Positions 1 through 39,167 of a DNA stretch of 64,000 bases are shown here, in pieces. The position numbers and the translations under genes were made by a program. The DNA comes from Candidatus Aenigmatarchaeota archaeon (GTDB taxonomy: Archaea; Aenigmatarchaeota; Aenigmatarchaeia; Aenigmatarchaeales; Aenigmatarchaeaceae). The first letter of the stretch is position 1, and each line of letters opens with the position of its first letter. The notes under the pieces were generated by a model. The model searched no databases and had not been told where the DNA came from. It saw only the letters and a program-made list of their open reading frames with translations. Location: NCBI GenBank assembly GCA_043814985.1, contig JBDRJK010000019.1, positions 56,561-120,560 of the forward strand. The letters are read 5' to 3'.

Positions 1-1
1 T

Positions 2-183
2 CAGAATACAGTTTTAAGAAAATTTAGAGATAGAATAACCGGACATCTTGAGGACATGGATATGAAAGAATTTATAGAATTATATAGAGAAATTGATAAA
101 ATTGGGATTAAAAATATTTTAAAAGATTATTTAAAATTTAGAGATATAGTTATCAAAAAATTAAAAGATACGGAAAAGACTTA
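2..183 (+). CDS. 3' end of a hypothetical protein truncated by the window edge (ends ...KKLKDTEKT*)
   Basis: Open frame from window start to TAA at 181-183; no recognisable domain. Confidence 0.3.
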
Positions 184-189
184 AATCCT
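180..189 (+). promoter_or_regulatory. TATA-box-like element (cTTAAATcct) about 25 nt upstream of the GTG start at 209; leaderless-type promoter
   Basis: Same 20-nt motif CTTAAATCCTyGTTTTyCyATA recurs at 595-616 upstream of the next ORF. Confidence 0.4.
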
Positions 190-208
190 CGTTTTCCATA
201 TTTTTATT

Positions 209-592
209 GTGAGTATTCTTGATAGATTTAGAAAAAAGAAGGAAGTAGATAAGAAAAAAATTCGATTAGAAAAGTTAAAAATGAGGGGTTTTACTCAAAG
301 AAACGAAGATGAAGTTATGAAAAAAGAAGATATTTTAGGTTTTTGGTGTCATACTTGTGATAAAAATATAACAAAAAGAGACATAAGAAAACATCTAAAA
401 AATAAACATAAAGTGTTTCTAGCAAAGTTTGGAGAAGAAACAAAAATTATACATGTGTTAGATAATGATAAAAAACAAGAATTTCTAAAAATAGAGGAAG
501 TAGCATTAAGAAAACACAAAAAAAAGACTAAAATGAAAAAAGAAAAGGTTACACCTGTAAAATACATCTTGGAATTATACTTAAAAGAATAA
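209..592 (+). CDS. Lys-rich small protein with C2H2-like zinc-finger motif (CHTCDK...HLKNKH)
   Basis: ORF track; Cys-x2-Cys...His-x4-His spacing; start may be GTG 209 or an internal ATG. Confidence 0.45.
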   Translation: MSILDRFRKKKEVDKKKIRLEKLKMRGFTQRNEDEVMKKEDILGFWCHTCDKNITKRDIRKHLKNKHKVFLAKFGEETKIIHVLDNDKKQEFLKIEEVALRKHKKKTKMKKEKVTPVKYILELYLKE

Positions 593-594
593 CC

Positions 595-604
595 CTTAAA
601 TCCT
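595..604 (+). promoter_or_regulatory. Second copy of the TATA-like motif cTTAAATcct, about 26 nt upstream of in-frame GTG at 625
   Basis: Direct repeat of the element at 180-200. Confidence 0.4.
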
Positions 605-810
605 TGTTTTTCTATAGATTTAGTGTGGGTGCCATACGAATTTTAGGTCTAATCTTATTGATAGTAGGTATCATACTCTTAATTGGTCCGGTTCTTTTTT
701 CATTTCTCGGTTTAGGTGGCTTCCTAATAACTGGAATTTTATATGCGATTTTATTCGTCCCATCAATTATTTTAATTGTTGTGGGAGCATGGCTCTACGG
801 AAAAAAATAA
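604..810 (+). CDS. Small two-TM membrane protein (likely real start GTG at 625)
   Basis: Hydrophobic ILLIVGIILLIGPVLFSFLGLGGFLITGILYAILFV segments. Confidence 0.4.
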   Translation: MFFYRFSVGAIRILGLILLIVGIILLIGPVLFSFLGLGGFLITGILYAILFVPSIILIVVGAWLYGKK

Positions 811-828
811 GATTAGAATGGTTTTAGT

Positions 829-1443
829 ATGAAAAAAATAGCTTTGGTAGGCTTGATTTTATTTGTGGTTCTTATAGCTGGCTGTAGTCAAACTACTACA
901 ACTACTTCTGATACAGGTCAAGAAGCAACAAAACAAGAAACACAAATTTACACGGGTAATACAGAAAATCTTCTACCTGAAAGAGATGAAATCAATACAG
1001 AATATGAAATATTAACAACTGAAGATTTCGATATAACTAAATATTTTTCAAAATATCAAACAAAAGGTTTAATGACAACAGGATTTGAAAGTGGTAGTTA
1101 TATGGAACATGAAATTTTGGAAGAATTTCCTAGAAACACCATAACTGTAGGATACATTTTCATACTAAAGTTTGATTCTGTTGATAATGCCGATTTATTT
1201 TATACTACTATGATTGATATGATAAAAAACGAGGGTGGGTATAAAGAGATAAGTTCTTTTTGGATAGATGCTGACTGTTTTGGTAAAGAAGGGTTTTATC
1301 CTGATTACCCCCTGAACAATTATTATCAAAATTTTTTCTGTAAAAAGAAGAACATCTTTTTCAATACAGAAACTTCAGGTTATAAAAAAAGCAGATTATC
1401 TGATTCTGAAGAATGGGCTAAAACAATAGCCGACAAAATTTGA
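829..1443 (+). CDS. Putative lipoprotein (signal peptide plus lipobox LIAGC), Thr-rich linker
   Basis: N-terminal hydrophobic segment followed by AGCSQTTTTTSD. Confidence 0.55.
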   Translation: MKKIALVGLILFVVLIAGCSQTTTTTSDTGQEATKQETQIYTGNTENLLPERDEINTEYEILTTEDFDITKYFSKYQTKGLMTTGFESGSYMEHEILEEFPRNTITVGYIFILKFDSVDNADLFYTTMIDMIKNEGGYKEISSFWIDADCFGKEGFYPDYPLNNYYQNFFCKKKNIFFNTETSGYKKSRLSDSEEWAKTIADKI

Positions 1444-1907
1444 ATAGTATGAAAATCCTAATAGCTATTTTGATTCTAGCAACAGTTTTGATAGCCGGGT
1501 GTATAAATGCACATTTGGATGTTTCTAAGTCTAAACAAGAATTTAATTGTCCATTTGAAATGGAGATAAAAGATGCTATACAAAATAGATTTCTTTATCA
1601 AAAAGAATATGGAGCTAGTACGGAAGCTGCTCTTGTAAATTGGAATATCTCAGACACATTACTTTTTCAAGATGATTATGAAACAAAATCAATGACTATA
1701 GTTTGTAGATATGGTTTAGAAAAAGGAGAAAATATAAACTATCTTTATTGTCATTTTGGAATTTTTGATTATACAATCCAACAATTGATTGTGGATTCTC
1801 AAGACATCGTAAAAGAAAAAGTAGTACATAGGATACTAGAACCTATAATTGTTGATACGAGTAATAACTTTACAGTTGTTGAATTGAAATGCCAAAAGGT
1901 TTCTTAG
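1440..1907 (+). CDS. Putative lipoprotein (lipobox LIAGC)
   Basis: Signal peptide/lipobox; ATGA overlap with the upstream lipoprotein gene. Confidence 0.5.
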   Translation: MNSMKILIAILILATVLIAGCINAHLDVSKSKQEFNCPFEMEIKDAIQNRFLYQKEYGASTEAALVNWNISDTLLFQDDYETKSMTIVCRYGLEKGENINYLYCHFGIFDYTIQQLIVDSQDIVKEKVVHRILEPIIVDTSNNFTVVELKCQKVS

Positions 1908-2146
1908 ATTCTCTCTGAAAAGAAGGTATTTTGGCAGTTAAAAGTCAATTTAACAGGTTGTAAGGCTGCACCTACCTTATGTGTAAGTGTTTAAATTCTC
2001 TTTCTTAAAAAAGGGGTAATTTTTTGACGATTTTTTTCGATTCTTCAAATTTTTAGCGATAGAAAGCGATTTGATGATATTTTCAATTTTTTAAGCTTTA
2101 AATATCGCCACAAATGACCTATCTAAGCTAGGTAAGGTGATTTAAT

Positions 2147-2428
2147 ATGGTAAGTGAAAGAAGAATAGAGGACATGAGCAGAGAAGAATTAATCCAAAAA
2201 CTCAAAGAGACAGAGAATCTAGGTGTAAAAATGACCAGACCAAATGACGACAGTAGAATTCAAATGAAATTGTCAGAGGACAGATTCGTTGCAGAACTGA
2301 TGGACTTAGGTTTGTCAGAGAAATTAGCAACTAGACGATATAAGGAATTTTTGAGACTAGGCGGTCTCAGTAATTTCGTCGTGCTGAAAAACGGGTCAGT
2401 TACAACCAAGAGAATTTCAAGGTATTAA
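2147..2428 (+). CDS. Hypothetical protein; first gene of a compact small-gene cassette
   Basis: ORF track; stop overlaps the next start. Confidence 0.4.
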   Translation: MVSERRIEDMSREELIQKLKETENLGVKMTRPNDDSRIQMKLSEDRFVAELMDLGLSEKLATRRYKEFLRLGGLSNFVVLKNGSVTTKRISRY

Positions 2429-2429
2429 C

Positions 2430-2591
2430 ATGACAAAAAAAGGATACTCCGTCTACTTAGGACGGGAGTTGAGCTTTATGGTAGACAAACTTATAGAAAA
2501 CAACTGTGGAAAGGTCAACGATACACTTAGTGGATTGATAAAACGAGGAATTGACAGTTTCGAGAAAGAGATAATTAGGGGGAATAAATAA
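2430..2591 (+). CDS. Ribbon-helix-helix (CopG/Arc-like) small DNA-binding protein, 53 aa
   Basis: Translated by hand: MTKKGYSVYLGRELSFMVDKLIEN... has the typical RHH N-terminal beta-strand plus helix; 1-nt overlap TAATG with the next gene. Confidence 0.4.
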   Translation: MTKKGYSVYLGRELSFMVDKLIENNCGKVNDTLSGLIKRGIDSFEKEIIRGNK

Positions 2592-2986
2592 TGACAGACA
2601 TACACTTTGAGAAATGGTTATACCAAAAATTCCAGAGCGAATTTAAAAACAGTTTGAAAAAACAGAAGCAGAAAGCCAATGAGATTTTTGAGAAGCAGAA
2701 GAAGAAAAACGACAAAAGAAGGGAAGAAACACAGAAGATAGCCAGCAATGTTCTTGACAAATACCCTTTATTTGCCAATGGTGTGCAAGTGAAGGGTAAA
2801 ATTACATGCAACAACAAACTTGAAGATGGTAAGCTATGTGATTTCGAGTTTGAGCCTAAGAAAATGCTGTTGGATAGGGCACCAAACATCCAAGATGAGA
2901 ATGAATTGCTGAAATACTTCTTGGGTATGGATTTGACTGCTATATGCAGGAAATGTGGGAAGACCTTGAAAATTTCATTGAGGTGA
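2591..2986 (+). CDS. Hypothetical zinc-ribbon protein (CNNK...C, CRKC)
   Basis: Two CxxC-like pairs; charged N-terminus. Confidence 0.45.
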   Translation: MTDIHFEKWLYQKFQSEFKNSLKKQKQKANEIFEKQKKKNDKRREETQKIASNVLDKYPLFANGVQVKGKITCNNKLEDGKLCDFEFEPKKMLLDRAPNIQDENELLKYFLGMDLTAICRKCGKTLKISLR

Positions 2987-2990
2987 TTGA

Positions 2991-3155
2991 ATGGACTATG
3001 ATAAATTAGCTAAGAAAATTTCTAAGCATTTACAAAAGGATTTTGTATCAAGAAAAGAATTTAAACAAATGGGCAAAGCTGTAGATACCTTGCTATTGAT
3101 ACATGATGAGGAAGCCAAGAAAATCAATGCTGATAAGATAAGATACATTGGCTAA
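2991..3155 (+). CDS. Small hypothetical protein (54 aa, MDYDKLAKKISKHLQKDF...)
   Basis: Hand translation; tightly packed between neighbouring genes. Confidence 0.3.
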   Translation: MDYDKLAKKISKHLQKDFVSRKEFKQMGKAVDTLLLIHDEEAKKINADKIRYIG

Positions 3156-3159
3156 AAAT

Positions 3160-3873
3160 ATGAATAATAAGAATGTAAGAATTCAACGAATGCACAAAAA
3201 AGCTTATTTTGTACTTTACCATATGTTATTCTTGCTATCTGAGGAAGAATATAATCTTACATCACTCGCTAAAATTATCGGAGAAAGCAAACAAAACACT
3301 TTATTTCATCTTAAAAAAGCACAAAAGAAGGGATTGGTAAACCAACATAGAGACACAAATTTCTGGTTCGTATTACCCAAAGGATTGGGGTCTATCCGAC
3401 TATTGAAAGCTTTTGTCAAATCAAAGAAGAGAATACCTAAAAAATACATAGGAAAGAGACGTTTTCATGCTTTCAAGGTAAATGGTAAATTGGGAACTAA
3501 ATTAGATACAAGACAGATTATAGAGCGTAATGGTGCGATTTTTGAGAATTCAGTCTATCAAGCTACTTATGGAATTGTGGTATGTGAGGATAATTTTGTT
3601 GCAACATCTAAAAAGCTTGGTTTGGCTACCTATACATTTGATTATAGTGAAGTATATTCCATTTTTGATGAAATAATTAATAAAATTAATAAGGAAACTC
3701 CATTCAAGATAAAAACTTACGAGTGTGAGATGGAGGTTGCTGAACTTCTGGACCAAAAGGACATAATTCAGGATGCTGAAAATAATGAAGGTTACCTCTC
3801 AGAATACTATTGGTACGATAATAGCTGGGACTTCTTAGAAAGGGAATTTAGAACAGAATTTAAAGATGTCTAG
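3160..3873 (+). CDS. Winged-helix (MarR/TrmB-like N-terminus) protein with uncharacterised C-terminal domain
   Basis: N-terminal SLAKIIGESKQNTLFHLKKAQKKGLV resembles HTH recognition region; ORF track (ATG 3160 preferred over TTG 3148). Confidence 0.45.
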   Translation: MNNKNVRIQRMHKKAYFVLYHMLFLLSEEEYNLTSLAKIIGESKQNTLFHLKKAQKKGLVNQHRDTNFWFVLPKGLGSIRLLKAFVKSKKRIPKKYIGKRRFHAFKVNGKLGTKLDTRQIIERNGAIFENSVYQATYGIVVCEDNFVATSKKLGLATYTFDYSEVYSIFDEIINKINKETPFKIKTYECEMEVAELLDQKDIIQDAENNEGYLSEYYWYDNSWDFLEREFRTEFKDV

Positions 3874-4216
3874 TGTTTTTCATCTGTAGGTCTTCTTTAT
3901 CCTTTTGATGTTTAAATCCCAAAAGGGCAAAAAATATAGAAACTGAACAAAAAGCTACTCCTAATGCTAATAAAAAAGCTGAATTATTCAATGTAAATTT
4001 TGAGTCTTCTAGAAAAACATTTGATACAGAATCAAAACTTTCTTTTTGCTGTTCATAAATTTGTGGTTTTTCCAAATGTAAATCATTAGTATAAACAATG
4101 AAATCTAACCACTGACCACGTATACTAACAAAAGATGAGAACATAAGACTGCAAATTATACCACTGAATCCTGCCAAAGTTGCCAATACTTTAGCAAATT
4201 CAAAGAATCTGTTCAC
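3860..4216 (-). CDS. Small membrane protein
   Basis: Two hydrophobic helices; ORF track. Confidence 0.35.
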   Translation of the reverse strand: MNRFFEFAKVLATLAGFSGIICSLMFSSFVSIRGQWLDFIVYTNDLHLEKPQIYEQQKESFDSVSNVFLEDSKFTLNNSAFLLALGVAFCSVSIFFALLGFKHQKDKEDLQMKNTRHL

Positions 4217-4284
4217 ATAAATTATTTAAAGTTCAAATTTTATATACTAAATAGGTATTTTAATTTCAGACCCCATTTCTTATT

Positions 4285-4701
4285 ATGAGATTCAAATTTT
4301 TGGAGGATATGGCAACAGCAGATGTTGCGTTCGAGGCTTACGGGAAGACTCTGGAAGAGGCCTTTGCTAATTCAGCTCTTGCAATGTTCGAGGTTCAGAC
4401 TGATGTTGGAAAAATTAAACCGATTATTTCCAAGGATGTTGAGATTGTTTCCGAGAACAAGGAGTCTCTTTTGTTTGACTGGCTTTCCGAATTGCTTTAT
4501 TTCAGGGACATAGAGAACATGTTCTTCGGCAAGTTTGACATCAAGATTGAGAAGAATGAGAATTTCAAGCTGACTGGCAAGATATATGGTGAGAAGATAG
4601 AGGGGCATGAGCTGAGGACCGAAGTGAAGGGTGTCTCCTACCAGTTGATGAAGATAGAGGAAAAGCCGGAATTCAAGATCAGGGTTATTCTTGACGTCTG
4701 A
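4285..4701 (+). CDS. Archease (RtcB activator/chaperone)
   Basis: MRFKFLEDMATADVAFEAYGKTLEEAF... matches the archease family signature and length (about 140 aa); RtcB lies 1.2 kb downstream. Confidence 0.8.
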   Translation: MRFKFLEDMATADVAFEAYGKTLEEAFANSALAMFEVQTDVGKIKPIISKDVEIVSENKESLLFDWLSELLYFRDIENMFFGKFDIKIEKNENFKLTGKIYGEKIEGHELRTEVKGVSYQLMKIEEKPEFKIRVILDV

Positions 4702-4759
4702 TTTTTACTACTAAAGAGTATTTAAAGTTTGCTATCTTATTTCTATTAGGTTGTTTGTA

Positions 4760-5044
4760 ATGGCTAGAATTAATAATACGATAAGAGAATCTTTGGATAA
4801 ACTTAGTTTTCATTTGAGGACAGAAGAAAAGAATGACCATATGTCTATTAAAACCAAGCCTGACATGCTTCTTGAACTGGTCAAGAAAAGAAAGAGGACC
4901 GTTAGGGAATTGTGCAACATACTGGATGTTGATCAAAGAATTCTGTCCAGCTGGGTTAATGCCCTTGAGAGCAATAAAATCCTGAAAACAGAAGCTTCTA
5001 TTTTTGGTGAATCTTTTATTAAACTGAATGGTTACAAGGAATAA
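4760..5044 (+). CDS. Small winged-helix DNA-binding protein
   Basis: KKRKRTVRELCNILDVDQRILSSWVNALESNKILK HTH-like segment. Confidence 0.4.
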   Translation: MARINNTIRESLDKLSFHLRTEEKNDHMSIKTKPDMLLELVKKRKRTVRELCNILDVDQRILSSWVNALESNKILKTEASIFGESFIKLNGYKE

Positions 5045-5280
5045 TAAAATTATATATTAAAATAATTAAAAACAAAAATAAAGATGGTTATATTCTTTAT
5101 TTGACAAAAAAACTTACTTAATAATCATCATCTTCTTTTTGAACTTCTTCTTTCATTTTCTTTTTCTTTGGCATGGATATCACCCCCTGTAGGCACTATC
5201 TCTGACAGATGGAAGAATTATGGACAACCTCTATTTAAACTTTTAACCGTATTTAAACATGACCTCTCACTTGCCAGTTA

Positions 5281-5847
5281 TTAAAAAAACGACAGTATCA
5301 GGTCTATTCCTCTGGCAGCTATGAATATGCCCATTACCTTTGAGATTATGTCAACTGTTCCCTTGCCCAAAAACTTGTTTATGAAGCCGTAGGCCCTTAG
5401 GAATACCCATATTAGAGAAAGTGAAAGCAGCAATGCAAGAGAAGTCAAAACCGCACCTATGCTGTTAGTAAAAAATATTACACTGGTTATTACTCCAGGC
5501 CCTGTTGTTATAGGGGTGGCTATTATAACAGCTGCCACACTGTAGTTCCTAGCCTTTTCCTTTGATATTTTGAAGTTAAGTATCATCTCCAAACCCAGAA
5601 GGAAAAGGACAATGCCGCCGACAATGGTAAAGCTCCTGAGGGATATGCTGAACACGTCAAGTATGGAGTTGCCACCTATGATGAAAATAAACGCAAGAAT
5701 GCCTGCAACAGTTACTGCCTTGTTTACGCTCTTTATTTTCTCTTTCTTGCTGAACTTTTTGGTTATGTCCGCGAAAACTATGTACGAAGAAAAGGGGTCC
5801 ATTATCATGAAAAGTATTATGAATGCCTGTAAAAAACCCGTCAACAT
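5281..5847 (-). CDS. MarC-family (UPF0056) integral membrane protein
   Basis: MLTGFLQAFIILFMIMDPF... N-terminus and 6-TM profile typical of MarC family. Confidence 0.65.
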   Translation of the reverse strand: MLTGFLQAFIILFMIMDPFSSYIVFADITKKFSKKEKIKSVNKAVTVAGILAFIFIIGGNSILDVFSISLRSFTIVGGIVLFLLGLEMILNFKISKEKARNYSVAAVIIATPITTGPGVITSVIFFTNSIGAVLTSLALLLSLSLIWVFLRAYGFINKFLGKGTVDIISKVMGIFIAARGIDLILSFF

Positions 5848-5884
5848 AAAGTATATTCACTTTTGTTGTTTTATAAACCTATAA

Positions 5885-7318
5885 TCAACCTTTTACAACA
5901 CCCAAAGGCTTCAATCTGCAAACAATCTTACTTATACCAGCCTTCTCACAAGTCTCAACAACCTCTGTAACATCCTTGTAGGCAAAGTCTGCCTCTTCAG
6001 CCAATGTCTTCAACCCAGCGCTCCTGACAAAGATTCCCCTTTTCTCCATATCTCTTTTTACTTCCTCTCCACTCTTTCTTCTCAATGCCGCATGCCTTGA
6101 CATTAATCTCCCAGCTCCGTGGGCAGTGCTGAAGAATGTATCCTTTCCAGTCTCTGTCCCGACAAGCAAATAAGAATAAGTTCCCATTGAACCTCCTATG
6201 ATAACTGGCTGGCCGATATTCTTGTAGATGTCAGGTAAGGCAGCATGACCAGGTGGAAACCCTCTCGTCGATCCTTTCCTGTGAATCCATACTTTTTTCT
6301 TGTTGCTATCAATAACATGCTCTTCCTGTTTGATGGTGTTGTGGCTGACATCGTAAATTAGTTCTAATCCTAAATCTTCTGCGCTCTTTCCAAAAATATT
6401 CTCAAAGCTCTGCCTGACCCAGTGAAGTATCATTTGTCTATTAGCTAAAGCATAGTTGACGGCGCATGATGCAGCCTTGAAATAATCCTGTCCCTCCATG
6501 CTCTGTGCCGGGGCGCATGCAAGTTCCCTGTCAGGAATCTTTATTCCGTATTTTCTCATTGCTCCCTCCATGACCCTTATGTAGTCTGTTGCAACTTGAT
6601 GTCCTAGTCCTCTTGAGCCGCAGTGTATCATGGCTGTTATCTGGCCCTCTTTTTCTATTCCCATTGTTTTGGCGACTTCAGGCAGGAATATCTTGTCAAC
6701 CCTTTGGACCTCTAGATAATGGTTTCCTGAACCAAGGCTTCCCAATTGTGGAATGCCTCTCTGCTTGGCCTTGTCAGAAACACGGGAAGCGTCAGCTTGC
6801 TTCATTCTTCCCCTGTCCTCAATCCTTTCCAAGTCCATCTTCCAGCCATAGCCGTTCTTGACAGCCCACTCAGCTCCTGTTTCCAATACCTGATTCAGCT
6901 GATTCATGTTCAGTCTTATTCTTCCTTTAGAGCCTAGACCGCTTGGGACATTCCTGAAAAATGCCTCCACCAAGCTTTTTACTTTTGGTTTCATGTCCTT
7001 CTCATTCAGGTTGGTTCTTATCATTCTCACTCCGCAAGAAATATCATAGCCGCAGAATCCAGGAGATATGATGCCAGTATCAAAATCAAATGCCCCGACC
7101 CCTCCGATTGGAGCCCCGTATCCCTCATGTGCATCTGGCAAAACAATAATGTTCTTTAAAATTCCCTTTAATGTTGCGCAATTAGAGGCCTGCCAAAATG
7201 TCCTGTCTCCCTGTATCTTTTCAATCATCTGCCTAGAAGCGTGAACCCTGACAGGAACCAGCATCTTGCCGGTTTTTGGAATCTCCCAGAGAACATCGTT
7301 TATTTTGTTTATCTCCAT
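5885..7318 (-). CDS. rtcB: RNA-splicing ligase RtcB (tRNA ligase)
   Basis: 477 aa; conserved RtcB blocks (LPDAHEGYGAPIGGV, HCGSRGLGHQ, HNTIKQEEH, STAHGAGR). Confidence 0.9.
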   Translation of the reverse strand: MEINKINDVLWEIPKTGKMLVPVRVHASRQMIEKIQGDRTFWQASNCATLKGILKNIIVLPDAHEGYGAPIGGVGAFDFDTGIISPGFCGYDISCGVRMIRTNLNEKDMKPKVKSLVEAFFRNVPSGLGSKGRIRLNMNQLNQVLETGAEWAVKNGYGWKMDLERIEDRGRMKQADASRVSDKAKQRGIPQLGSLGSGNHYLEVQRVDKIFLPEVAKTMGIEKEGQITAMIHCGSRGLGHQVATDYIRVMEGAMRKYGIKIPDRELACAPAQSMEGQDYFKAASCAVNYALANRQMILHWVRQSFENIFGKSAEDLGLELIYDVSHNTIKQEEHVIDSNKKKVWIHRKGSTRGFPPGHAALPDIYKNIGQPVIIGGSMGTYSYLLVGTETGKDTFFSTAHGAGRLMSRHAALRRKSGEEVKRDMEKRGIFVRSAGLKTLAEEADFAYKDVTEVVETCEKAGISKIVCRLKPLGVVKG

Positions 7319-7341
7319 ACTATCATCACTATCTTATTATT

Positions 7342-7350
7342 CTTTATAAA
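7342..7350 (+). promoter_or_regulatory. Consensus archaeal TATA box (cTTTATAAA) about 25 nt upstream of ATG 7372
   Basis: Spacing implies a leaderless transcript. Confidence 0.5.
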
Positions 7351-7371
7351 GATTTAATTGCAATAACTTGT

Positions 7372-7656
7372 ATGCCAGTGAGTACAGCACCATACAGGAG
7401 GGCTTATTTACATACGAAAAGCAAGGGAAGAGAGGGCACTGTCAAGTGCGGTTATTGCGGGAGAATGGTTCCCAGATGGAAGACCTTTACAAAATTCAGG
7501 GGTTTTAGGATTTCAGACCCGATTTTGAGAAGACAGGTCCCAAGTTATAGAATACACACGTTCCAGCAGAAGATGTATGTCTGCCCGAGCTGTGCCAGGA
7601 GAAGAAAAATTGTTAAACCAGGCAAAAGCGTCAGGAAAAAACATCTCAAGGTTTAA
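7372..7656 (+). CDS. Zinc-ribbon ribosomal protein, S26e-like (94 aa)
   Basis: KGREGTVKCGYCGRMVPRWK...YVCPSCARRRK pattern resembles S26e (possibly L34e); the track ORF start at 7276 overlaps RtcB and is unlikely. Confidence 0.45.
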   Translation: MPVSTAPYRRAYLHTKSKGREGTVKCGYCGRMVPRWKTFTKFRGFRISDPILRRQVPSYRIHTFQQKMYVCPSCARRRKIVKPGKSVRKKHLKV

Positions 7657-7688
7657 AAGCTTCAATTTCTATATAATAAAGTGATTTT

Positions 7689-8018
7689 ATGAACGTAATT
7701 GAATCAAAGCCAGTGGGAATGCCAGAAGCAAAGGAAATTATGACTAGTCAGGAGAAGGACAAGGAAATGACATACGAGCAGAAGCTGGCAATGGAACATC
7801 TAAAGAAGTTTACCAAACTAAAAGCTGCTGAGGCCAAGAAAATGTTGGAAGAGCTATCAGCAGTTCTGAGAATGTCTGAGGAGACCAAAATCCAAATTAT
7901 AAATCTCTTGCCAAAGAAGCCAGAGGAGCTGAGAATGATATTCACAAGAGAGAACTTCAGCTTGAAGGACGATGAAATCAAGAAAATACTAGAGATAGTT
8001 AAAAAATACCATAAGTGA
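7689..8018 (+). CDS. rpoF: RNA polymerase subunit F (Rpo4)
   Basis: EAKEI...YEQKLAMEHLKKFTKLK...LLPKKPEELRMIFTRE matches RpoF family; followed by the conserved DUF655 partner gene. Confidence 0.7.
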   Translation: MNVIESKPVGMPEAKEIMTSQEKDKEMTYEQKLAMEHLKKFTKLKAAEAKKMLEELSAVLRMSEETKIQIINLLPKKPEELRMIFTRENFSLKDDEIKKILEIVKKYHK

Positions 8019-8584
8019 TGCTTATGCCTTTTCTAAGAGACGAAAATGTGATAGTATTAGATTTCCTTCCAAGGGGCCATGCAGCTGGAAGACAGGAGTC
8101 TTTGGCACAGGTAATAGGCAACAAATACTTCTCATTGTTGGAGGTTGTTGTGAGAAAGGATGTTTCCTTTAAGTCAGGAGACATTGCCTACATAGGCGAA
8201 TCGAAAAGGGACCAGATAGATCACATCAAAAGAAGGATAACCATCAGGGACCTGACAACCTTTGCCAAGTCCGAACTGCCCTTTGTTGTTGAAAAACTGG
8301 TTAAAGAGAACGAGGAGAAGTTTGTCAACTTCTTTAACACTTCTAGACCAATCTCGACCAGATTGAATCAGTTAGAGCTCTTGCCGGGAGTCGGGAAAAA
8401 GCACATGTGGGACATAATCAAGGAGAGGAAGAAGGGAGAGTTCAAGAGCTTCAAGGACCTTTCAGAGAGGATAAAGCTCATGCCAGATCCTGCCAACATA
8501 GTCATCAAGAGAATAATGGAAGAGCTGGAAAATGACAATGTCAGATACAGGCTGTTTGTAGCAGGTCCTGTCAGGAGATATTGA
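8015..8584 (+). CDS. DUF655-family HhH nucleic-acid-binding protein (conserved rpoF neighbour)
   Basis: LELLPGVGKKHMWDIIKER helix-hairpin-helix; 4-nt overlap with rpoF. Confidence 0.55.
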   Translation: MMLMPFLRDENVIVLDFLPRGHAAGRQESLAQVIGNKYFSLLEVVVRKDVSFKSGDIAYIGESKRDQIDHIKRRITIRDLTTFAKSELPFVVEKLVKENEEKFVNFFNTSRPISTRLNQLELLPGVGKKHMWDIIKERKKGEFKSFKDLSERIKLMPDPANIVIKRIMEELENDNVRYRLFVAGPVRRY

Positions 8585-8877
8585 TGGATGTAATGGGAAA
8601 ATTGCAGCAACTTCTTCTAAAAATTCCCAGAGGCAAAGTAACAACTTACAAGGAAATAGCTAGAGCGCTTGGTATCCATTCTAGGGCTGCCGGAAGATTG
8701 CTTGGAAGTAATCCTGACAGCAAGAAATACCCATGTTATAAGGTTGTTTATGCTGATGGAAGATTGGGAGGATACACTAGTTCTACAGGTTTAAAGGAAA
8801 AGGTAAAAAGACTTAAAAAAGATGGGATAGAAGTAAAGAATGGAAGGATTGCCAAAAAGTCGTTCTTTTATTTTTAA
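8581..8877 (+). CDS. MGMT-like DNA-binding domain protein (COG3695-type) with variant PCYKV motif
   Basis: YKEIARALG...PCYKVVYADG resembles the O6-alkylguanine alkyltransferase C-terminal domain (PCHRV) with His replaced by Tyr. Confidence 0.55.
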   Translation: MMDVMGKLQQLLLKIPRGKVTTYKEIARALGIHSRAAGRLLGSNPDSKKYPCYKVVYADGRLGGYTSSTGLKEKVKRLKKDGIEVKNGRIAKKSFFYF

Positions 8878-9165
8878 GCTGTTTTTACTACTGGATGATA
8901 GTTTTATATATCACCTGAGCTTAATTATTATTACGGTTAAGTGATAAAGGTGTATATGTGTTTCAATTTCCAAAAGGTGACTTTGTGTTTAGAAAACTCA
9001 AACCAAAAAGACCCGTTGTGATAAGGAACTGCAATACTGTAAAAGTTTGCTATTATCATAAGGGAACTAAGACATGCTTGGGTCCTTTGTGCTACTGGCT
9101 CAGGATTGGCAGATGTCCTATTCATGATAGGATAATAATCAAAAGAGGCAAGTAATAAGGGTTTT

Positions 9166-18146: not shown

Positions 18147-19187
18147 CTAAAGCTTTCTTTGATCAACCCAGTCCTTGACTTTTCCATCCAAAATGTATTT
18201 TGTATTTTTCAATTCTTCTATGTTCTTAGAGCCAGTCAAAAGCATTGTTGTCTTCAGCTCCTTTTCCAGTTTGTCAATATATTCTTCCACACCCTGTTTT
18301 CCTTTGGTTTTCAGAATCCTCAAGAAGGGTAAAGCTATGCCGCACATCTCCGCTCCAAGTGCAATTGATTTGGCAATGTCAACACCTGACCTAATCCCGC
18401 CCGTAGCAATTAGAGGCAGCCCTACTTTGGCTTCTATAATCGAAACAGGAGTCGGGATTCCCCAATTCTTGAAATTCTGGAACTCCTTGCCAGATATCAA
18501 GCCGTCAATAACAATCCAGTTAGTTCCCCCAAAACCTCCCACATCTATTGCCTTGACACCAGCTTCCTTAAGTTTCAAAGCAACATCTCTTGATATGCCA
18601 AAACCTACCTCCTTGCCAATAACAGGGTATTTCAAATCCTTGCATAAGTCCTTCAGAAAACATAGGCATTCACTGAAATTGGAGTCTCCGTTTTTCTGGA
18701 ATATCTCTTGGGAGGGGTTTATGTGAACGCAAAGGGCATTTGCTCCAACATATTTCAAGGCTTCCTCGATTTTATCAATGCTGAATTTCTTCAATTGATA
18801 TATGCCTACATTGCCGAAAAGCAGAACATTAGGAGCAACATCTCTAACATAGTAAGTATCCTTCAATTTAGGGTCTTCTATCATGGCTCTCTGGGATCCC
18901 AAAGAAAATCCAATACCTTTCTTCTCTGCTATTTCTGCTAGGTCCTTGTTTATTTTAGTTGCCTCTTCTGTCCCACCTGTCATTGATGCTATTGTCAGGG
19001 GTAATCTGAGTTTTGTTCCAAGAAACTCCGTGGTAGTGTCTATTTTTGCCAAATCCAATTCAGGCAAAGAATTATGAACTAGGTTAACATCCTCAAAACA
19101 TGCCTTATTGCTTTCAACATTCTCCTCTATGCATATCTTAAGATGGTCCTTTTTTCTTCTCTCCGTTGTCATAGTAATAGAATACAA
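18147..19187 (-). CDS. fni: Type 2 (FMN-dependent) isopentenyl-diphosphate isomerase
   Basis: N-terminal TERRKKDHL, ASMTGGT, GGFGGTNW motifs; 346 aa. Confidence 0.85.
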   Translation of the reverse strand: MYSITMTTERRKKDHLKICIEENVESNKACFEDVNLVHNSLPELDLAKIDTTTEFLGTKLRLPLTIASMTGGTEEATKINKDLAEIAEKKGIGFSLGSQRAMIEDPKLKDTYYVRDVAPNVLLFGNVGIYQLKKFSIDKIEEALKYVGANALCVHINPSQEIFQKNGDSNFSECLCFLKDLCKDLKYPVIGKEVGFGISRDVALKLKEAGVKAIDVGGFGGTNWIVIDGLISGKEFQNFKNWGIPTPVSIIEAKVGLPLIATGGIRSGVDIAKSIALGAEMCGIALPFLRILKTKGKQGVEEYIDKLEKELKTTMLLTGSKNIEELKNTKYILDGKVKDWVDQRKL

Positions 19188-19238
19188 AGGAAGAATATAT
19201 AAAAGTGATAACCGGATACGATGAAAGACGAAGGCTTG

Positions 19239-19628
19239 TCAGAATTTGACTGTTTCTTTGGGAAATACCTTTCTAAATGATTCGTATACATTTTCATTTA
19301 ATTGTTTTTTTGTTTCTTTATCCAACTCATGGAGATACATATCCCCCCCTGCATGAGCTCTATCTAAACCTCCAATATTATTCAAGAAATCCAAATTGTC
19401 TGTGTTCGTTTTCCTTGCTCCTTTATACTGTGGAATCAGTTTTTTAGAATCAATATCATGAATCACAGAAAGAAGAATATTTTGCTCTCCATATCTTAGC
19501 AAAAGAGTTTGTTCTATACCATTCTTTGTAAAGAAATCTTTTCTATCTAAAACATTAAGTCCTCTTTCCTTAAGTTCATCAATTACTCGTCCTATATTGC
19601 CTTTTTTAGTTTCTTGTACCATAGCCAT
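19239..19628 (-). CDS. Hypothetical protein (second gene of a two-gene minus-strand cassette)
   Basis: ORF track; no recognisable family. Confidence 0.35.
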   Translation of the reverse strand: MAMVQETKKGNIGRVIDELKERGLNVLDRKDFFTKNGIEQTLLLRYGEQNILLSVIHDIDSKKLIPQYKGARKTNTDNLDFLNNIGGLDRAHAGGDMYLHELDKETKKQLNENVYESFRKVFPKETVKF

Positions 19629-19644
19629 ATTTTCACCAATTATA

Positions 19645-20019
19645 CTATTGGGATCCTATGCTGAGTTTCGGTATATCCAATCTCTTTTTCCCAATCCCTA
19701 ATCTTCCAAACAACTTCCATCTTGTTGCCTTTACTACAACTTCCTTTCCAACCCCACATTTTTTAATTTGTGTATGAATATATCTATTACAACTTGGTGA
19801 ATGTGGTCTTTTGACTTCTTTATACTCCATTAGAGCATTTTTATTCATATATCCCTCTGGTAAAATATACACATCTTGATTGCATCCTGGACATGGTATA
19901 CCCGTTTTTGCAACTCCACTACCCGGAACTTGTATAGGAATATCTATGTTGTAATTTACCAACGGGATTTTTTTCAGATTTGGTTCACCGTTTTCGTATA
20001 CAGTTTCTATTAATGACAT
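19645..20019 (-). CDS. Hypothetical Cys-rich protein (CPGC...C...C)
   Basis: ORF track; possible zinc-binding. Confidence 0.35.
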   Translation of the reverse strand: MSLIETVYENGEPNLKKIPLVNYNIDIPIQVPGSGVAKTGIPCPGCNQDVYILPEGYMNKNALMEYKEVKRPHSPSCNRYIHTQIKKCGVGKEVVVKATRWKLFGRLGIGKKRLDIPKLSIGSQ

Positions 20020-36364: not shown

Positions 36365-36769
36365 ATGAAACAAGTGCCACCACAGAAGATTGTAGAGAGA
36401 GTTTCAGAGAGACTGAAGAAGGACGAGAACATCAAGCCTCCACAGTGGTCTAAGTTCGTGAAGACAGGTATGTCAAGCGAAAGGCCCCCTATAAAAGAGG
36501 ACTGGTGGTTTTCCAGGTCCGCAGCCATTCTGAGAAGGATTTATGTTCATGGGCCTGTTGGCACGCAGAGACTTAGGACGTCTTTGGGAGGCAGGAGAAG
36601 AAGAGGACACAAGCCTGCTCACCGTGCCAGTGCTGGAGGAAAGATAATAAGGACAATTCTTCAGCAGTTGGAAAAGGCTGGTTATGTTAAAATAGTTGAG
36701 AATCCAAAAAAGGGAAGAGTAATAACGCCCAAGGGCCAGAAACTTTTGGAAAAGGCTGCAGGTGGATAA
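36365..36769 (+). CDS. rps19e: Ribosomal protein S19e
   Basis: PPQWSKFVKTGMSSERPPI...WWFSRSAAILRRIY...GGRRRRGHKP matches S19e. Confidence 0.85.
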   Translation: MKQVPPQKIVERVSERLKKDENIKPPQWSKFVKTGMSSERPPIKEDWWFSRSAAILRRIYVHGPVGTQRLRTSLGGRRRRGHKPAHRASAGGKIIRTILQQLEKAGYVKIVENPKKGRVITPKGQKLLEKAAGG

Positions 36770-37025
36770 GATGAAGAGCGATGATGTCAAGCAGTTCGAG
36801 GATTTGAAGAACCAGACTCTCAGGAAGGTCCTGTCCAAAAACGCCCTTGAAAGGCTTGGTAGAGTTAAGCTGGCAAACCCTGTGCTTGCGACCCAGTTGG
36901 AGATGTACTTGCTTCAGGCTTTCCAGACTGGCCAGTTGAAGGGAAACGTTGATGATAAAAAGCTGAAACAGATTCTCAATATCCTAGTTCCAAAAAAGAG
37001 GAAGACGAGTATCAAGAGAAAGTGA
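36762..37025 (+). CDS. PDCD5/TFAR19-family dsDNA-binding protein (COG2118)
   Basis: LRKVLSKNALERLGRVKLANPVLATQLEMYLLQAFQTGQL; conserved position after S19e. Confidence 0.7.
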   Translation: MDKMKSDDVKQFEDLKNQTLRKVLSKNALERLGRVKLANPVLATQLEMYLLQAFQTGQLKGNVDDKKLKQILNILVPKKRKTSIKRK

Positions 37026-37029
37026 TTAT

Positions 37030-37197
37030 ATGCCCAAGGCAAACCCATTAGCAAAAAAACTGAGACTGATAGCCGCTGGCAAGAAGAAGCCAGCTCCTAG
37101 ATGGGCTGATCTGAAAAAGCATGGGAAGAGAGCTAGGACCAGAAGAATTGCTGTTCATGTTACAAAGCACTGGAGAAGAGGAAGACTAAAGAAATAA
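37030..37197 (+). CDS. rpl39e: Ribosomal protein L39e-like (55 aa)
   Basis: Hand translation MPKANPLAKKLRLIAAGKKK...KHWRRGRLKK; expected position in the S19e-COG2118-L39e-L31e cluster. Confidence 0.5.
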   Translation: MPKANPLAKKLRLIAAGKKKPAPRWADLKKHGKRARTRRIAVHVTKHWRRGRLKK

Positions 37198-37208
37198 TAC
37201 TCTGACTA

Positions 37209-37947: not shown

Positions 37948-38808
37948 CTATGTTAATAGTTTCAATTCTTCCATTCTCTTCTTAGCATCTATCGAGCTTC
38001 TGAAAAGGTGCCAAAATATCTTTTGCAACCATTCAACCCATTGCTCATCATAAATATAGTAAAGAATGTACATCTTTTCTTTCATCTCGTCCTTTGAGTA
38101 GTCCTTGGGATCCAATGATTCCCTTAGGATAGCTACCTTGTTGTCTATTATGTTGCCTCTTATGGGATGGAAGCAGTGTCTTACCTCAACAACATCTCTT
38201 CCTGTCTTCTGGTTTATTGAGAGAACATTCTGTATATTGTCTATGCCTGCCAATTCCACCCTGTTCAAGAACTTCAGTGAAATTTTATCTTTGCCCATAA
38301 CCTCCAAAACATTAAAGATTCTCTTCTTTTGGTCTGTTAGGTTGACAAATGATAGATTCCCTGATAAAAATAATATTTGCTTCTCTGCTTGCCTGAGCTC
38401 GTTCACAAATTCTTTGAAATGCGAGGATGAACTATATTCTTTTTTATTGATCATCTTCATTTCTTTCTTGTCATTGTCAATGAACTGGAATATTTCTGAA
38501 GGGCTGAAGTCTTTGTGGTACCTGCCAAAAATTATTTGTTTGAAAAGTCTTTCTTGAATATTAGATGCATGGAATTTCTCCATATTATTCCAGAAAACAA
38601 CCTTTAGCGAGCCTCTGGTACCTCCCCTGAAGACCCTTGAGGAGATGGTTCCCTGTTCCTTTTCTATTTTTTCCACATAATTGTTGGCTGTTCTCCAGTT
38701 AATATTAATGTACTTCGCTATCTCATTGATGCTTCTAGGCTTCTGATAGACGAATTCATTGATTTTCTTTGTTATTTCCTTGGTTAGAACCATGCTAATA
38801 ATATACAA
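37948..38808 (-). CDS. Winged-helix domain protein (N-terminal HTH SINEIAKYININWRTANNYV), unknown C-terminus
   Basis: ORF track; HTH-like N-terminus. Confidence 0.4.
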   Translation of the reverse strand: MYIISMVLTKEITKKINEFVYQKPRSINEIAKYININWRTANNYVEKIEKEQGTISSRVFRGGTRGSLKVVFWNNMEKFHASNIQERLFKQIIFGRYHKDFSPSEIFQFIDNDKKEMKMINKKEYSSSSHFKEFVNELRQAEKQILFLSGNLSFVNLTDQKKRIFNVLEVMGKDKISLKFLNRVELAGIDNIQNVLSINQKTGRDVVEVRHCFHPIRGNIIDNKVAILRESLDPKDYSKDEMKEKMYILYYIYDEQWVEWLQKIFWHLFRSSIDAKKRMEELKLLT

Positions 38809-38867
38809 CTATGTGTATAAAAAAGTGTATGTAATATACATATTTTGTACAACTATAAACTAATTAT

Positions 38868-39167
38868 ATGAAAAGAAATGTGAATTGGAAAAAATTCAAG
38901 AAACTGCTTGATAAGAATGAAGCAGGGTATGGTGCCATCAAGTATAGAGAAACCGTTGATAAACTACTCGAGGACGAAATATTCAGCTTTAAGCCAGAAG
39001 GCAATTACCAGATAGTGGGGTGTAACGTGGTTCTTAATCCCCACTCACATATATTGACTCTCTATTTCACAAGAAAGTCTGACGCTGTCAAATATGCAAA
39101 TAAAAATTATGGCAATGCTTTATACGAGGTAATGGTTGACAAGATAGAAACTCTTGTTCGGAGTTGA
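38868..39167 (+). CDS. Hypothetical small protein
   Basis: ORF track only. Confidence 0.3.
   Translation: MKRNVNWKKFKKLLDKNEAGYGAIKYRETVDKLLEDEIFSFKPEGNYQIVGCNVVLNPHSHILTLYFTRKSDAVKYANKNYGNALYEVMVDKIETLVRS

Follow-up and report, generated by a model that had tools for sequence, protein, structure and literature searches.

In plasmid replication-control operons a small ribbon-helix-helix (RHH) repressor is encoded upstream of the replication (Rep) gene, as in CopG-RepB of pMV158 and ORF56-ORF904 of the Sulfolobus plasmid pRN1. The early or regulatory clusters of archaeal viruses and integrative plasmids, such as T5/T6 of the fusellovirus SSV1, encode RHH, C2H2 or zinc-ribbon and winged-helix miniproteins. 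Rep-Arvir (RepSNJ2, DUF7845) is a relative of Rep_trans with the fold of the TATA-binding protein (TBP) and a fused MarR-like winged helix; its gene closes a compact operon of small open reading frames (ORFs) at the end of a provirus and for a long time carried the annotation of a regulator (PMC13107129, 2026). Here we analyzed a 64,000-nt stretch of a genome of the Aenigmatarchaeota or Aenigmarchaeota, which belong to the DPANN archaea (contig JBDRJK010000019.1), which carries at 2147-3873 a cassette of five small ORFs, named ORF1 to ORF5, that bears comparison with these systems. The whole stretch is called the window, and all coordinates without a contig name are window positions.

Like the SSV1 T5/T6 clusters, the cassette combines this type of gene content with tight packing and is of a kind found in integrase-bearing elements; unlike them, it has no homology to entries of PHROGs, INPHARED or IMG/VR and no capsid gene or other virus hallmark. 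On balance we favor the view that window 1 to about 4272, directly upstream of the archease gene, is occupied by the right-hand part of a foreign island of low GC content, most likely an integrated element (provirus or integrative plasmid), and that the cassette is the regulatory and possibly replication-control operon of this element. A mobile-element origin of the island is very likely, and it is likely that the five genes form a single, co-regulated operon.

Results

A five-gene cassette shared with another metagenomic element

The five ORFs (93, 53, 131, 54 and 237 aa) lie on the + strand at intergenic distances of -1 to +4 nt, and their junctions are, in gene order, TAAcATG (1-nt gap), TAATG (1-nt overlap), TGAttgaATG (4-nt gap) and TAAaaatATG (4-nt gap). 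An initial annotation, made from the sequence alone, had described five packed ORFs with overlapping stops and starts; this layout was confirmed, and of the five sizes given there only the last changed, since ORF5 is 237 and not 238 aa long from its ATG. An alternative TTG start at 3148 would extend ORF5 to 241 aa, and the NCBI call begins at an ATG at 3190 (227 aa, 'helix-turn-helix domain-containing protein'); the 'MNN...' start of the 237-aa form agrees with the homologue P0002. As read from the sequence, Shine-Dalgarno-like motifs precede ORF1 (GGTGA, 2136-2140), ORF3 (AGGGGG) and ORF4 (GAGGTGA). NCBI numbers ORF1 and ORF3 with successive locus tags (ABIE55_03670 and 03675), so ORF2 was apparently left out of that annotation and at least one real gene is apparently missing from the public record.

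The same architecture was found on L009 and L010, two contigs of 21.5 and 24.9 kb from two samples, where an ORF5 homologue comes fifth in a cassette of 116, 65, 144, 61 and 236 aa with gaps of +1, -4, +4 and +1 nt. In the L010 cassette, ORF1 matches the first gene (5066-5416; phmmer E 3.8e-6, shuffle z 8.6), ORF3 the third (5612-6046; E 9e-4, z 7.1) and ORF5 the fifth (E 6e-20, z 34). Since ORF1, ORF3 and ORF5 have collinear homologues in another metagenomic element, the cassette ORFs read as genes and not as chance ORFs, and the five-gene operon as a whole is conserved in an element that is only distantly related. The gene in the fourth position of the L010 cassette (6051-6236, 61 aa) follows the ORF3-like gene after the same 4-nt gap and ends, like ORF4, in YIG.

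Database searches with the five proteins returned nothing significant in Pfam, PHROGs, NCBIfam or PADLOC: ORF1 had no family match in any of the four, and only ORF5 gave sub-threshold hits of the ArsR/HTH_5 type, at residues 22-68. ORF3 likewise lacks a profile match above threshold (zf-BED, E 0.026), and all four of its cysteines (C73, C83, C119 and C122) align with cysteines of the L010 homologue (C77, C88, C129 and C132), which supports its initial description as a zinc-ribbon protein; the first pair is spaced by 9-10 residues and is not a CxxC. ORF2 has a strand-helix-helix pattern that is compatible with an RHH protein. Its only PDB sequence match is pArc (Arc repressor), which is non-significant (E 0.5), and its counterpart on L010 (5418-5615) gave sub-threshold RHH matches to the YlcI/YnfO N-terminal domain (E 1.6e-4) and to BrnA (E 0.037).

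The weak likeness of the ORF2 counterpart to the antitoxin BrnA, together with the overlap of the small RHH-like ORF2 with its downstream neighbor, would fit a toxin-antitoxin-like module, as the initial annotation had suggested, or another defense or addiction module, with an RHH antitoxin paired with an uncharacterized toxin. These readings found no backing: neither the five proteins nor their counterparts match a toxin or defense family in Pfam, NCBIfam or PADLOC, where only winged-helix matches (such as Csa3) were obtained, and a five-gene layout that closes with a DNA-binding protein is not a toxin-antitoxin architecture. We consider such a module very improbable.

A low-GC island directly upstream of archease

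The cassette lies in a region of markedly deviant composition. Window 1-4216 has a GC content of 30.9%, compared with 40.4 ± 1.6% (minimum 36.9%) in equal-sized windows of the remaining 60 kb, a sharp drop of about 6 standard deviations. GC content at third codon positions (GC3) is 0.18-0.31 for most island genes, namely the genes flanking the cassette, ORF4, ORF5 and the 118-aa gene that follows, versus 0.46 ± 0.05 for long host ORFs.

Downstream of the island lie archease (4285-4701), a small helix-turn-helix (HTH) gene, MarC, RtcB, an S26e-like gene and Rpo4. Five related Aenigmarchaeota genomes were found via the archease gene (63-91% identity), and the order archease-RtcB-S26e-Rpo4 is kept in all five as far as their contigs reach. 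The closest relative becomes homologous at the DNA level about 12 nt ahead of the archease ATG (4285), and the right end of the island lies at about 4272; the alignment of this junction with the relatives shows no duplicated gene end. Upstream of archease the relatives carry none of the island proteins (DNA covered: up to 10 kb in L001-L003, about 9 kb in L005 and less than 1 kb in L004), so that no syntenic copy of the cassette was seen in these five genomes, and the upstream genes that they have in common (about 550, 168 and 265 aa) are absent from the entire 64-kb window. By this comparison the island appears to displace upstream neighbors that are conserved in five relatives.

ORF5 homologues in integrase-bearing elements

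An exhaustive HMMER search of 1.84 billion representatives identified, besides ORF5 itself, five full-length homologues (E 1.4e-14 to 5.4e-5; 220-248 aa), and a profile search with the alignment of the six members added none. On L009 and L010 a tyrosine recombinase is encoded 4.4 kb from the cassette (Pfam Phage_integrase, E 1.5e-30), membrane proteins and lipoproteins are numerous, and no housekeeping gene with a Pfam match occurs in the 17-20 kb read. The 152-aa lipoprotein that precedes the window's cassette is homologous to L010 7559-8056 (phmmer E 1.5e-29; tblastn 38% identity), which adjoins the cassette there too.

A second context is provided by L012, L013 and L016, host contigs of 22 to 272 kb on which an ORF5-like gene closes a 9.6-kb block that opens with an integrase (Pfam Phage_integrase, E 1.3e-17 on L012). 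Here the ORF5-like gene is preceded by an AbrB/MazE-like gene of 44 aa and by genes for an 84-aa zinc-binding protein and an 83-aa protein. A direct repeat of 35 nt borders the block at L012 1353-1387 and 10928-10962 (83% identity), and each copy encodes W-R-R-G-R-L-K-I-stop, the 3' end of a small basic protein of the S19e operon that we read as L39e-like from its HWRR motif. Such repeats are a classic mark of an element that has integrated site-specifically at the 3' end of a gene, and they bound a 9.6-kb element. The window has its own operon for S19e, a double-stranded DNA-binding protein and the L39e-like protein (36365-37199), which is 62-94% identical to that of L012, and therefore the host of L012 is a related archaeon; its copy of the target site (about 37170-37199, HWRRGRLK) is intact and unoccupied and serves as an empty-site reference.

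Further genes of the window's island have homologues on L012. The small membrane protein at 604-810 (tm68) corresponds to the gene right after the L012 integrase (L012 2677-2862; phmmer E 1.7e-15), and the 204-aa lipoprotein is similar to a DUF4352 lipoprotein on that contig (phmmer E 1.2e-6). On two shorter contigs, L014 and L011, ORF5-like genes stand among other tiny zinc-ribbon and RHH-like ORFs. Constant across these contexts are ORF5, in most cases small DNA-binding genes, lipoprotein cargo and, wherever at least 10 kb are visible, integrases. The idea of a mobile-element-derived module put forward in the initial annotation is thus supported by low GC content, absence from relatives and the integrase and attachment-site (att) context of the homologues.

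Searches of INPHARED (DNA and protein), PLSDB, IMG/VR and PHROGs, the kind of comparison with virus and plasmid collections proposed at the outset, yielded no relatives of the island and matches only to ArsR-type helices; the ORF5 relatives are absent from IMG/VR and INPHARED. Because these searches were negative, the element is not assignable to a described virus or plasmid family, and it is best explained as a member of an undescribed family associated with DPANN archaea.

Several other features of these contigs were noted. Beside the L010 cassette, L010 90-4830 (corresponding to L009 3550-8290) contains four genes of 110, 102, 1020 and 337 aa, and at least two of the four proteins begin (MRGS..., MKGAE...) in a way that resembles the class III (type IV pilin-like) signal peptides of archaea; these genes may encode pilus or virion proteins for that element. 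Three lipoproteins, encoded at L007 1714-2154, L012 2950-4614 and L012 6904-8151, have a near-identical signal peptide (MSKLVLL...LIILIAGCTQQPTG), and its occurrence on different ORF5-bearing contigs points to an exchange of surface-protein cargo among elements. A separate defense island adjoins the S19e operon of L012 (11958-19866); it consists of a second integrase and, after it, two DNA cytosine methylases, Vsr and an SduA_C (Shedu-like) protein.

Sequence and predicted structure of ORF5

The N-terminus of ORF5 (about residues 20-90) folds as a winged helix of the ArsR/MarR/PadR type in the structural comparison of its model, as had been annotated from the sequence, and Pfam HTH_5 scores 17.8 bits, under the 22-bit cut-off. 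The AlphaFold2 model built from the six-sequence alignment reached a predicted local distance difference test (pLDDT) score of 80, and the C-terminal 145 residues, modelled separately (pLDDT 76), form an antiparallel sheet with helices behind it. No family in BFVD, Pfam or the PDB sequences matches this alpha/beta domain (about residues 95-237), and its fold matches are generic. The residues that are invariant in the six-member alignment are concentrated in the C-terminal domain (R101, H103, F105, A194, K200, D220, S222, E227, R228, E229 and E233), where they lie mainly within the motifs R101-x-H103-x-F105 and D220-x-S222-x4-E227-R228-E229-x3-E233. The invariant charged residues occupy alternating positions of the predicted C-terminal strands; E227, E229 and E233 alternate with F230 and F234 in the last strand and should lie on the exposed face of the sheet. 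In the model, the invariant patch of carboxylates, histidine and arginine on this face points to a metal site that acts on nucleic acid, and less to a surface for dimerization.

ORF5 could instead be purely a transcription factor, a regulator of lysogeny or maintenance whose C-terminal domain serves for dimerization or for binding a ligand or metal, in which case the cassette would have no role in replication. The typical ArsR/SmtB-MarR-PadR winged helix at its N-terminus speaks for this, as do the failure of Pfam and PDB-sequence searches to detect a nuclease, primase or Rep family, the lack of an invariant tyrosine and the generic fold matches of the C-terminal domain. Metal-sensing domains, too, can hold clusters of His, Asp and Glu. 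Conservation in ORF5, however, peaks in D-x-S-x4-E-R-E-x3-E and R-x-H-x-F and not in the recognition helix, a pattern more typical of a catalytic or metal site, and the att-bounded 9.6-kb relative offers no other replication candidate than its ORF5-like gene. We regard a pure transcription factor as a serious possibility that nevertheless falls short of being probable.

The second of these objections rests on the complete gene list of the L012 element (integrase, membrane proteins, lipoproteins, tiny zinc and AbrB proteins and the ORF5-like gene): because the list offers no other, the ORF5-like gene is the only candidate for replication or DNA processing. An integrative element need not replicate autonomously, which limits this argument by elimination. 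That ORF5 is a replication initiator or nuclease is accordingly put forward tentatively, as a reading about as probable as that of a pure transcription factor. A bolder version seems rather unlikely: ORF5 and its five relatives would be a new and very rare replication-initiation or DNA-nicking family of DPANN-associated integrative elements, a tyrosine-less cousin of Rep_trans and Rep-Arvir in which the winged helix targets the origin and a miniature TBP-like sheet carries a metal site made up of H103, D220, E227 and E229, and the elements themselves would be an unrecognized DPANN family that ferries lipoproteins and surface proteins.

A proposed control region upstream of ORF1

Between the 152-aa lipoprotein gene and ORF1, two TATA-like elements are present (TTTAAATA at 2097-2104 and TTTAAATT at 1992-1999), and a cluster of four CGAT(T) repeats at 2028, 2038, 2057 and 2067 (spacing 10/19/10) is placed between them. 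CGAT occurs 92 times in the 64 kb, and the cluster is the sole 50-nt stretch with more than two copies, making it a plausible candidate operator or iteron. A hairpin origin was also considered and is unsupported, since neither the upstream region (z -0.27) nor the spacer between ORF5 and archease (z -0.55) folds better as single-stranded DNA than shuffled sequences.

A separate motif that resembles a leaderless promoter, cTTAAATyCyyGwTTTTyCTAtAT, stops about 3-6 nt short of start codons. It was found ahead of three genes left of the cassette (window 180-206 and 595-621; L017 293-322) and at four sites of the L012 element (2647-2676, 2920-2949, 5694-5723 and 6874-6903), and host genes in the window have TTTATA(A/T)A boxes in its place. 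The 64 kb contain just two copies of CTTAAATCYT, both within the island. The motif may be an element-specific promoter or operator.

Other island genes and the neighborhood

The features of the locus are collected in Table 1. The flanking genes proved to be two lipobox proteins and two small membrane proteins, in line with the initial annotation. At the left edge of the window, the Logan contig L017 reaches 612 nt further and contains the full 157-aa gene (L017 323-796), with a promoter-like TTAAAT..TTTCTA motif about 28 nt ahead of its ATG. The 127-aa protein has a GC3 of 0.18 compared with 0.46 in the host, weak sub-threshold Pfam matches to OrsD and zf-C2H2, and no match in a scan of GTDB representatives; its gene has the element-type promoter motif at 180-206. 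To the right of the cassette, the 118-aa membrane gene belongs to the island, where its composition places it; it is found together with ORF5 and archease on Logan contig L006, which like L017 comes from SRR27458547, and has no counterpart upstream of archease in the relatives.

Outside the island, the MarC gene, which lies between the small HTH gene and RtcB, has no counterpart at the same position in the five relatives and is a second lineage-specific insertion near the island. Further 1-kb blocks of low GC content occur at 19001-20000 (0.34) and 38001-39000 (0.35), compared with a mean of 0.40.

Table 1. Features in and around the low-GC island (window positions)
Feature	Position	Strand	Description	Accession or basis
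157-aa gene, 3' end	1-184	+	member of the low-GC island; start 428 nt left of the window	
127-aa protein	209-592	+	lysine-rich island protein with C2H2-like zinc finger (CHTC...HLKNKH)	
tm68	604-810	+	small two-helix membrane protein, 68 aa from TTG 604; GTG 624 likelier start	
204-aa lipoprotein	829-1443	+	lipobox LIAGC; cargo gene; GC3 0.21	
152-aa lipoprotein	1449-1907	+	lipobox LIAGC	NCBI MFH1473966.1, ABIE55_03665
Upstream control region	1908-2146	+	240 nt between lipoprotein gene and ORF1	sequence reading
CGAT(T) repeats	2028-2070	+	four copies	
ORF1	2147-2428	+	93 aa, helical protein, first gene of the operon	NCBI MFH1473967.1, ABIE55_03670
ORF2	2430-2591	+	53 aa, putative ribbon-helix-helix DNA-binding protein	strand-helix-helix pattern from sequence
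ORF3	2591-2986	+	131 aa, K/E-rich N-terminal helix followed by four-Cys domain	NCBI MFH1473968.1, ABIE55_03675
ORF4	2991-3155	+	54 aa, helical protein	
ORF5	3160-3873	+	237 aa from ATG, N-terminal winged helix and C-terminal alpha/beta domain	
118-aa membrane protein	3860-4216	-	convergent with ORF5, 14-nt overlap; GC3 0.19	
Right island/host junction	4217-4272			alignment of window 4150-4330 with L001, L002, L003
MarC-family membrane gene	5281-5847	-	between small HTH gene and RtcB	Pfam E 1e-30

Discussion

Origin of the island

A number of observations weigh against reading the locus as an integrated element with a replication-control operon. The whole 64-kb window contains no integrase homologue, and the island extends to the left of it by more than 612 nt. 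No convincing flanking att repeat was found in window 1-9000, where only the right junction lies, and no tRNA fragment or RNA family was found for the window's copy. Because the left end of the island lies outside the window, we infer integration of this copy by analogy with its relatives. PHROG and Pfam profiles detected neither virus hallmarks nor replication proteins nor plasmid families among the genes of the island, of L009 and of L012. Within the cassette, GC3 of ORF1-3 is host-like (0.38-0.49), ORF2 and ORF4 have no statistically significant homologues (z 1.1 and 1.6 for the size-matched positional counterparts on L010), and ORF2 matches no RHH profile in Pfam or NCBIfam (E <= 1), so that its initial assignment to this class is unverified by any hidden Markov model (HMM). 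No tyrosine is invariant in the six ORF5 proteins, Y219 being replaced by His in P0002, which argues against a covalent rolling-circle mechanism. Finally, the closest homologue of ORF5 (P0002, on L007) stands alone next to lipoproteins, without the four small genes, and the cassette is hence not obligatory.

Several of these points, namely the lack of an integrase or att site within the window, the host-like GC3 of ORF1-3 and the occurrence of P0002 without a cassette, would also be expected of a host island, specific to this lineage, in which small regulators and surface proteins evolve fast, or of an old, immobile remnant, whose likeness to integrase-bearing elements results from gene sharing. 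Small orphan genes and surface proteins abound in DPANN genomes. Such an island is hard to reconcile with the sharp GC drop of 6 standard deviations and with the displacement of upstream neighbors conserved in five relatives. Moreover, tm68, the 152-aa lipoprotein, ORF1, ORF3 and ORF5, and thus five or more genes of the island, have their only homologues in integrase elements, one of which has clear att repeats. We judge a host island or remnant improbable and retain the integrated element as the explanation of the locus.

Proposed mechanism and significance

In the integrated element, the operon would be transcribed from the 240-nt upstream region. The RHH-like ORF2, possibly together with the zinc-binding ORF3, may bind the four CGAT repeats, which are one helical turn apart, and in this way autoregulate the operon, much as the CopG-Rep and ORF56-ORF904 modules do in plasmids. 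Through its winged helix, ORF5 would contact the DNA of the element, and the patch of carboxylates, histidine and arginine on its C-terminal sheet would carry out its activity, most likely that of a metal-dependent DNA-processing or replication-initiation protein.

The mobile elements of DPANN archaea have hardly been charted, and for none of them is a replication or control module defined. The ORF5 family counts six members in about 15 billion proteins and is a concrete conserved marker for one family of DPANN elements. The ORF5-bearing elements mostly carry lipoproteins and membrane proteins, a class thought to mediate the contact between DPANN and host cells. If ORF5 is an initiator, it would represent a new minimal architecture among the replication proteins of archaeal mobile elements and a handle for genetic tools in these uncultivated organisms; if it is a regulator only, the island would be an ordinary, poorly annotated integrated element.

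Comparison with known systems

ORF5 differs from the ArsR/SmtB, MarR and PadR regulators by an extra conserved domain of 145 aa and by an HTH_5 score below the cut-off. With Rep-Arvir (RepSNJ2, DUF7845/PF25227) and Rep_trans (RepD, PDB 4CWC) it shares the combination of a MarR-like winged helix and a beta-sheet domain and, with the former, its position as the terminal gene of a compact operon of small ORFs and its annotation merely as an HTH regulator. In contrast to both, the domain order of ORF5 is reversed, with the winged helix first, its sheet domain measures about 145 aa versus about 300 aa, and it has invariant acidic residues (D220, E227, E229 and E233) but no invariant tyrosine. The six C-terminal domains of the ORF5 family match neither PF25227 nor PF02486 (Pfam, E <= 10), and the structural similarity of ORF5 to the Rep_trans/Rep-Arvir fold is weak, no better than to the cores of aminoacyl-tRNA synthetases. 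Membership of ORF5 in these families was rejected on profile, domain order, size and tyrosine, and the resemblance is retained as a lead only.

The cassette as a whole differs from the CopG-RepB and ORF56-ORF904 modules in that it has no sequence homology to them, ORF5 has no HUH, prim-pol or helicase motifs, and ORF1, ORF3 and ORF4 are interleaved. What it has in common with them is a packed operon that joins a gene of about 50 aa, here putatively of the RHH type, to a gene for a larger DNA-binding protein, short upstream repeats one helical turn apart, and a location in a mobile element.

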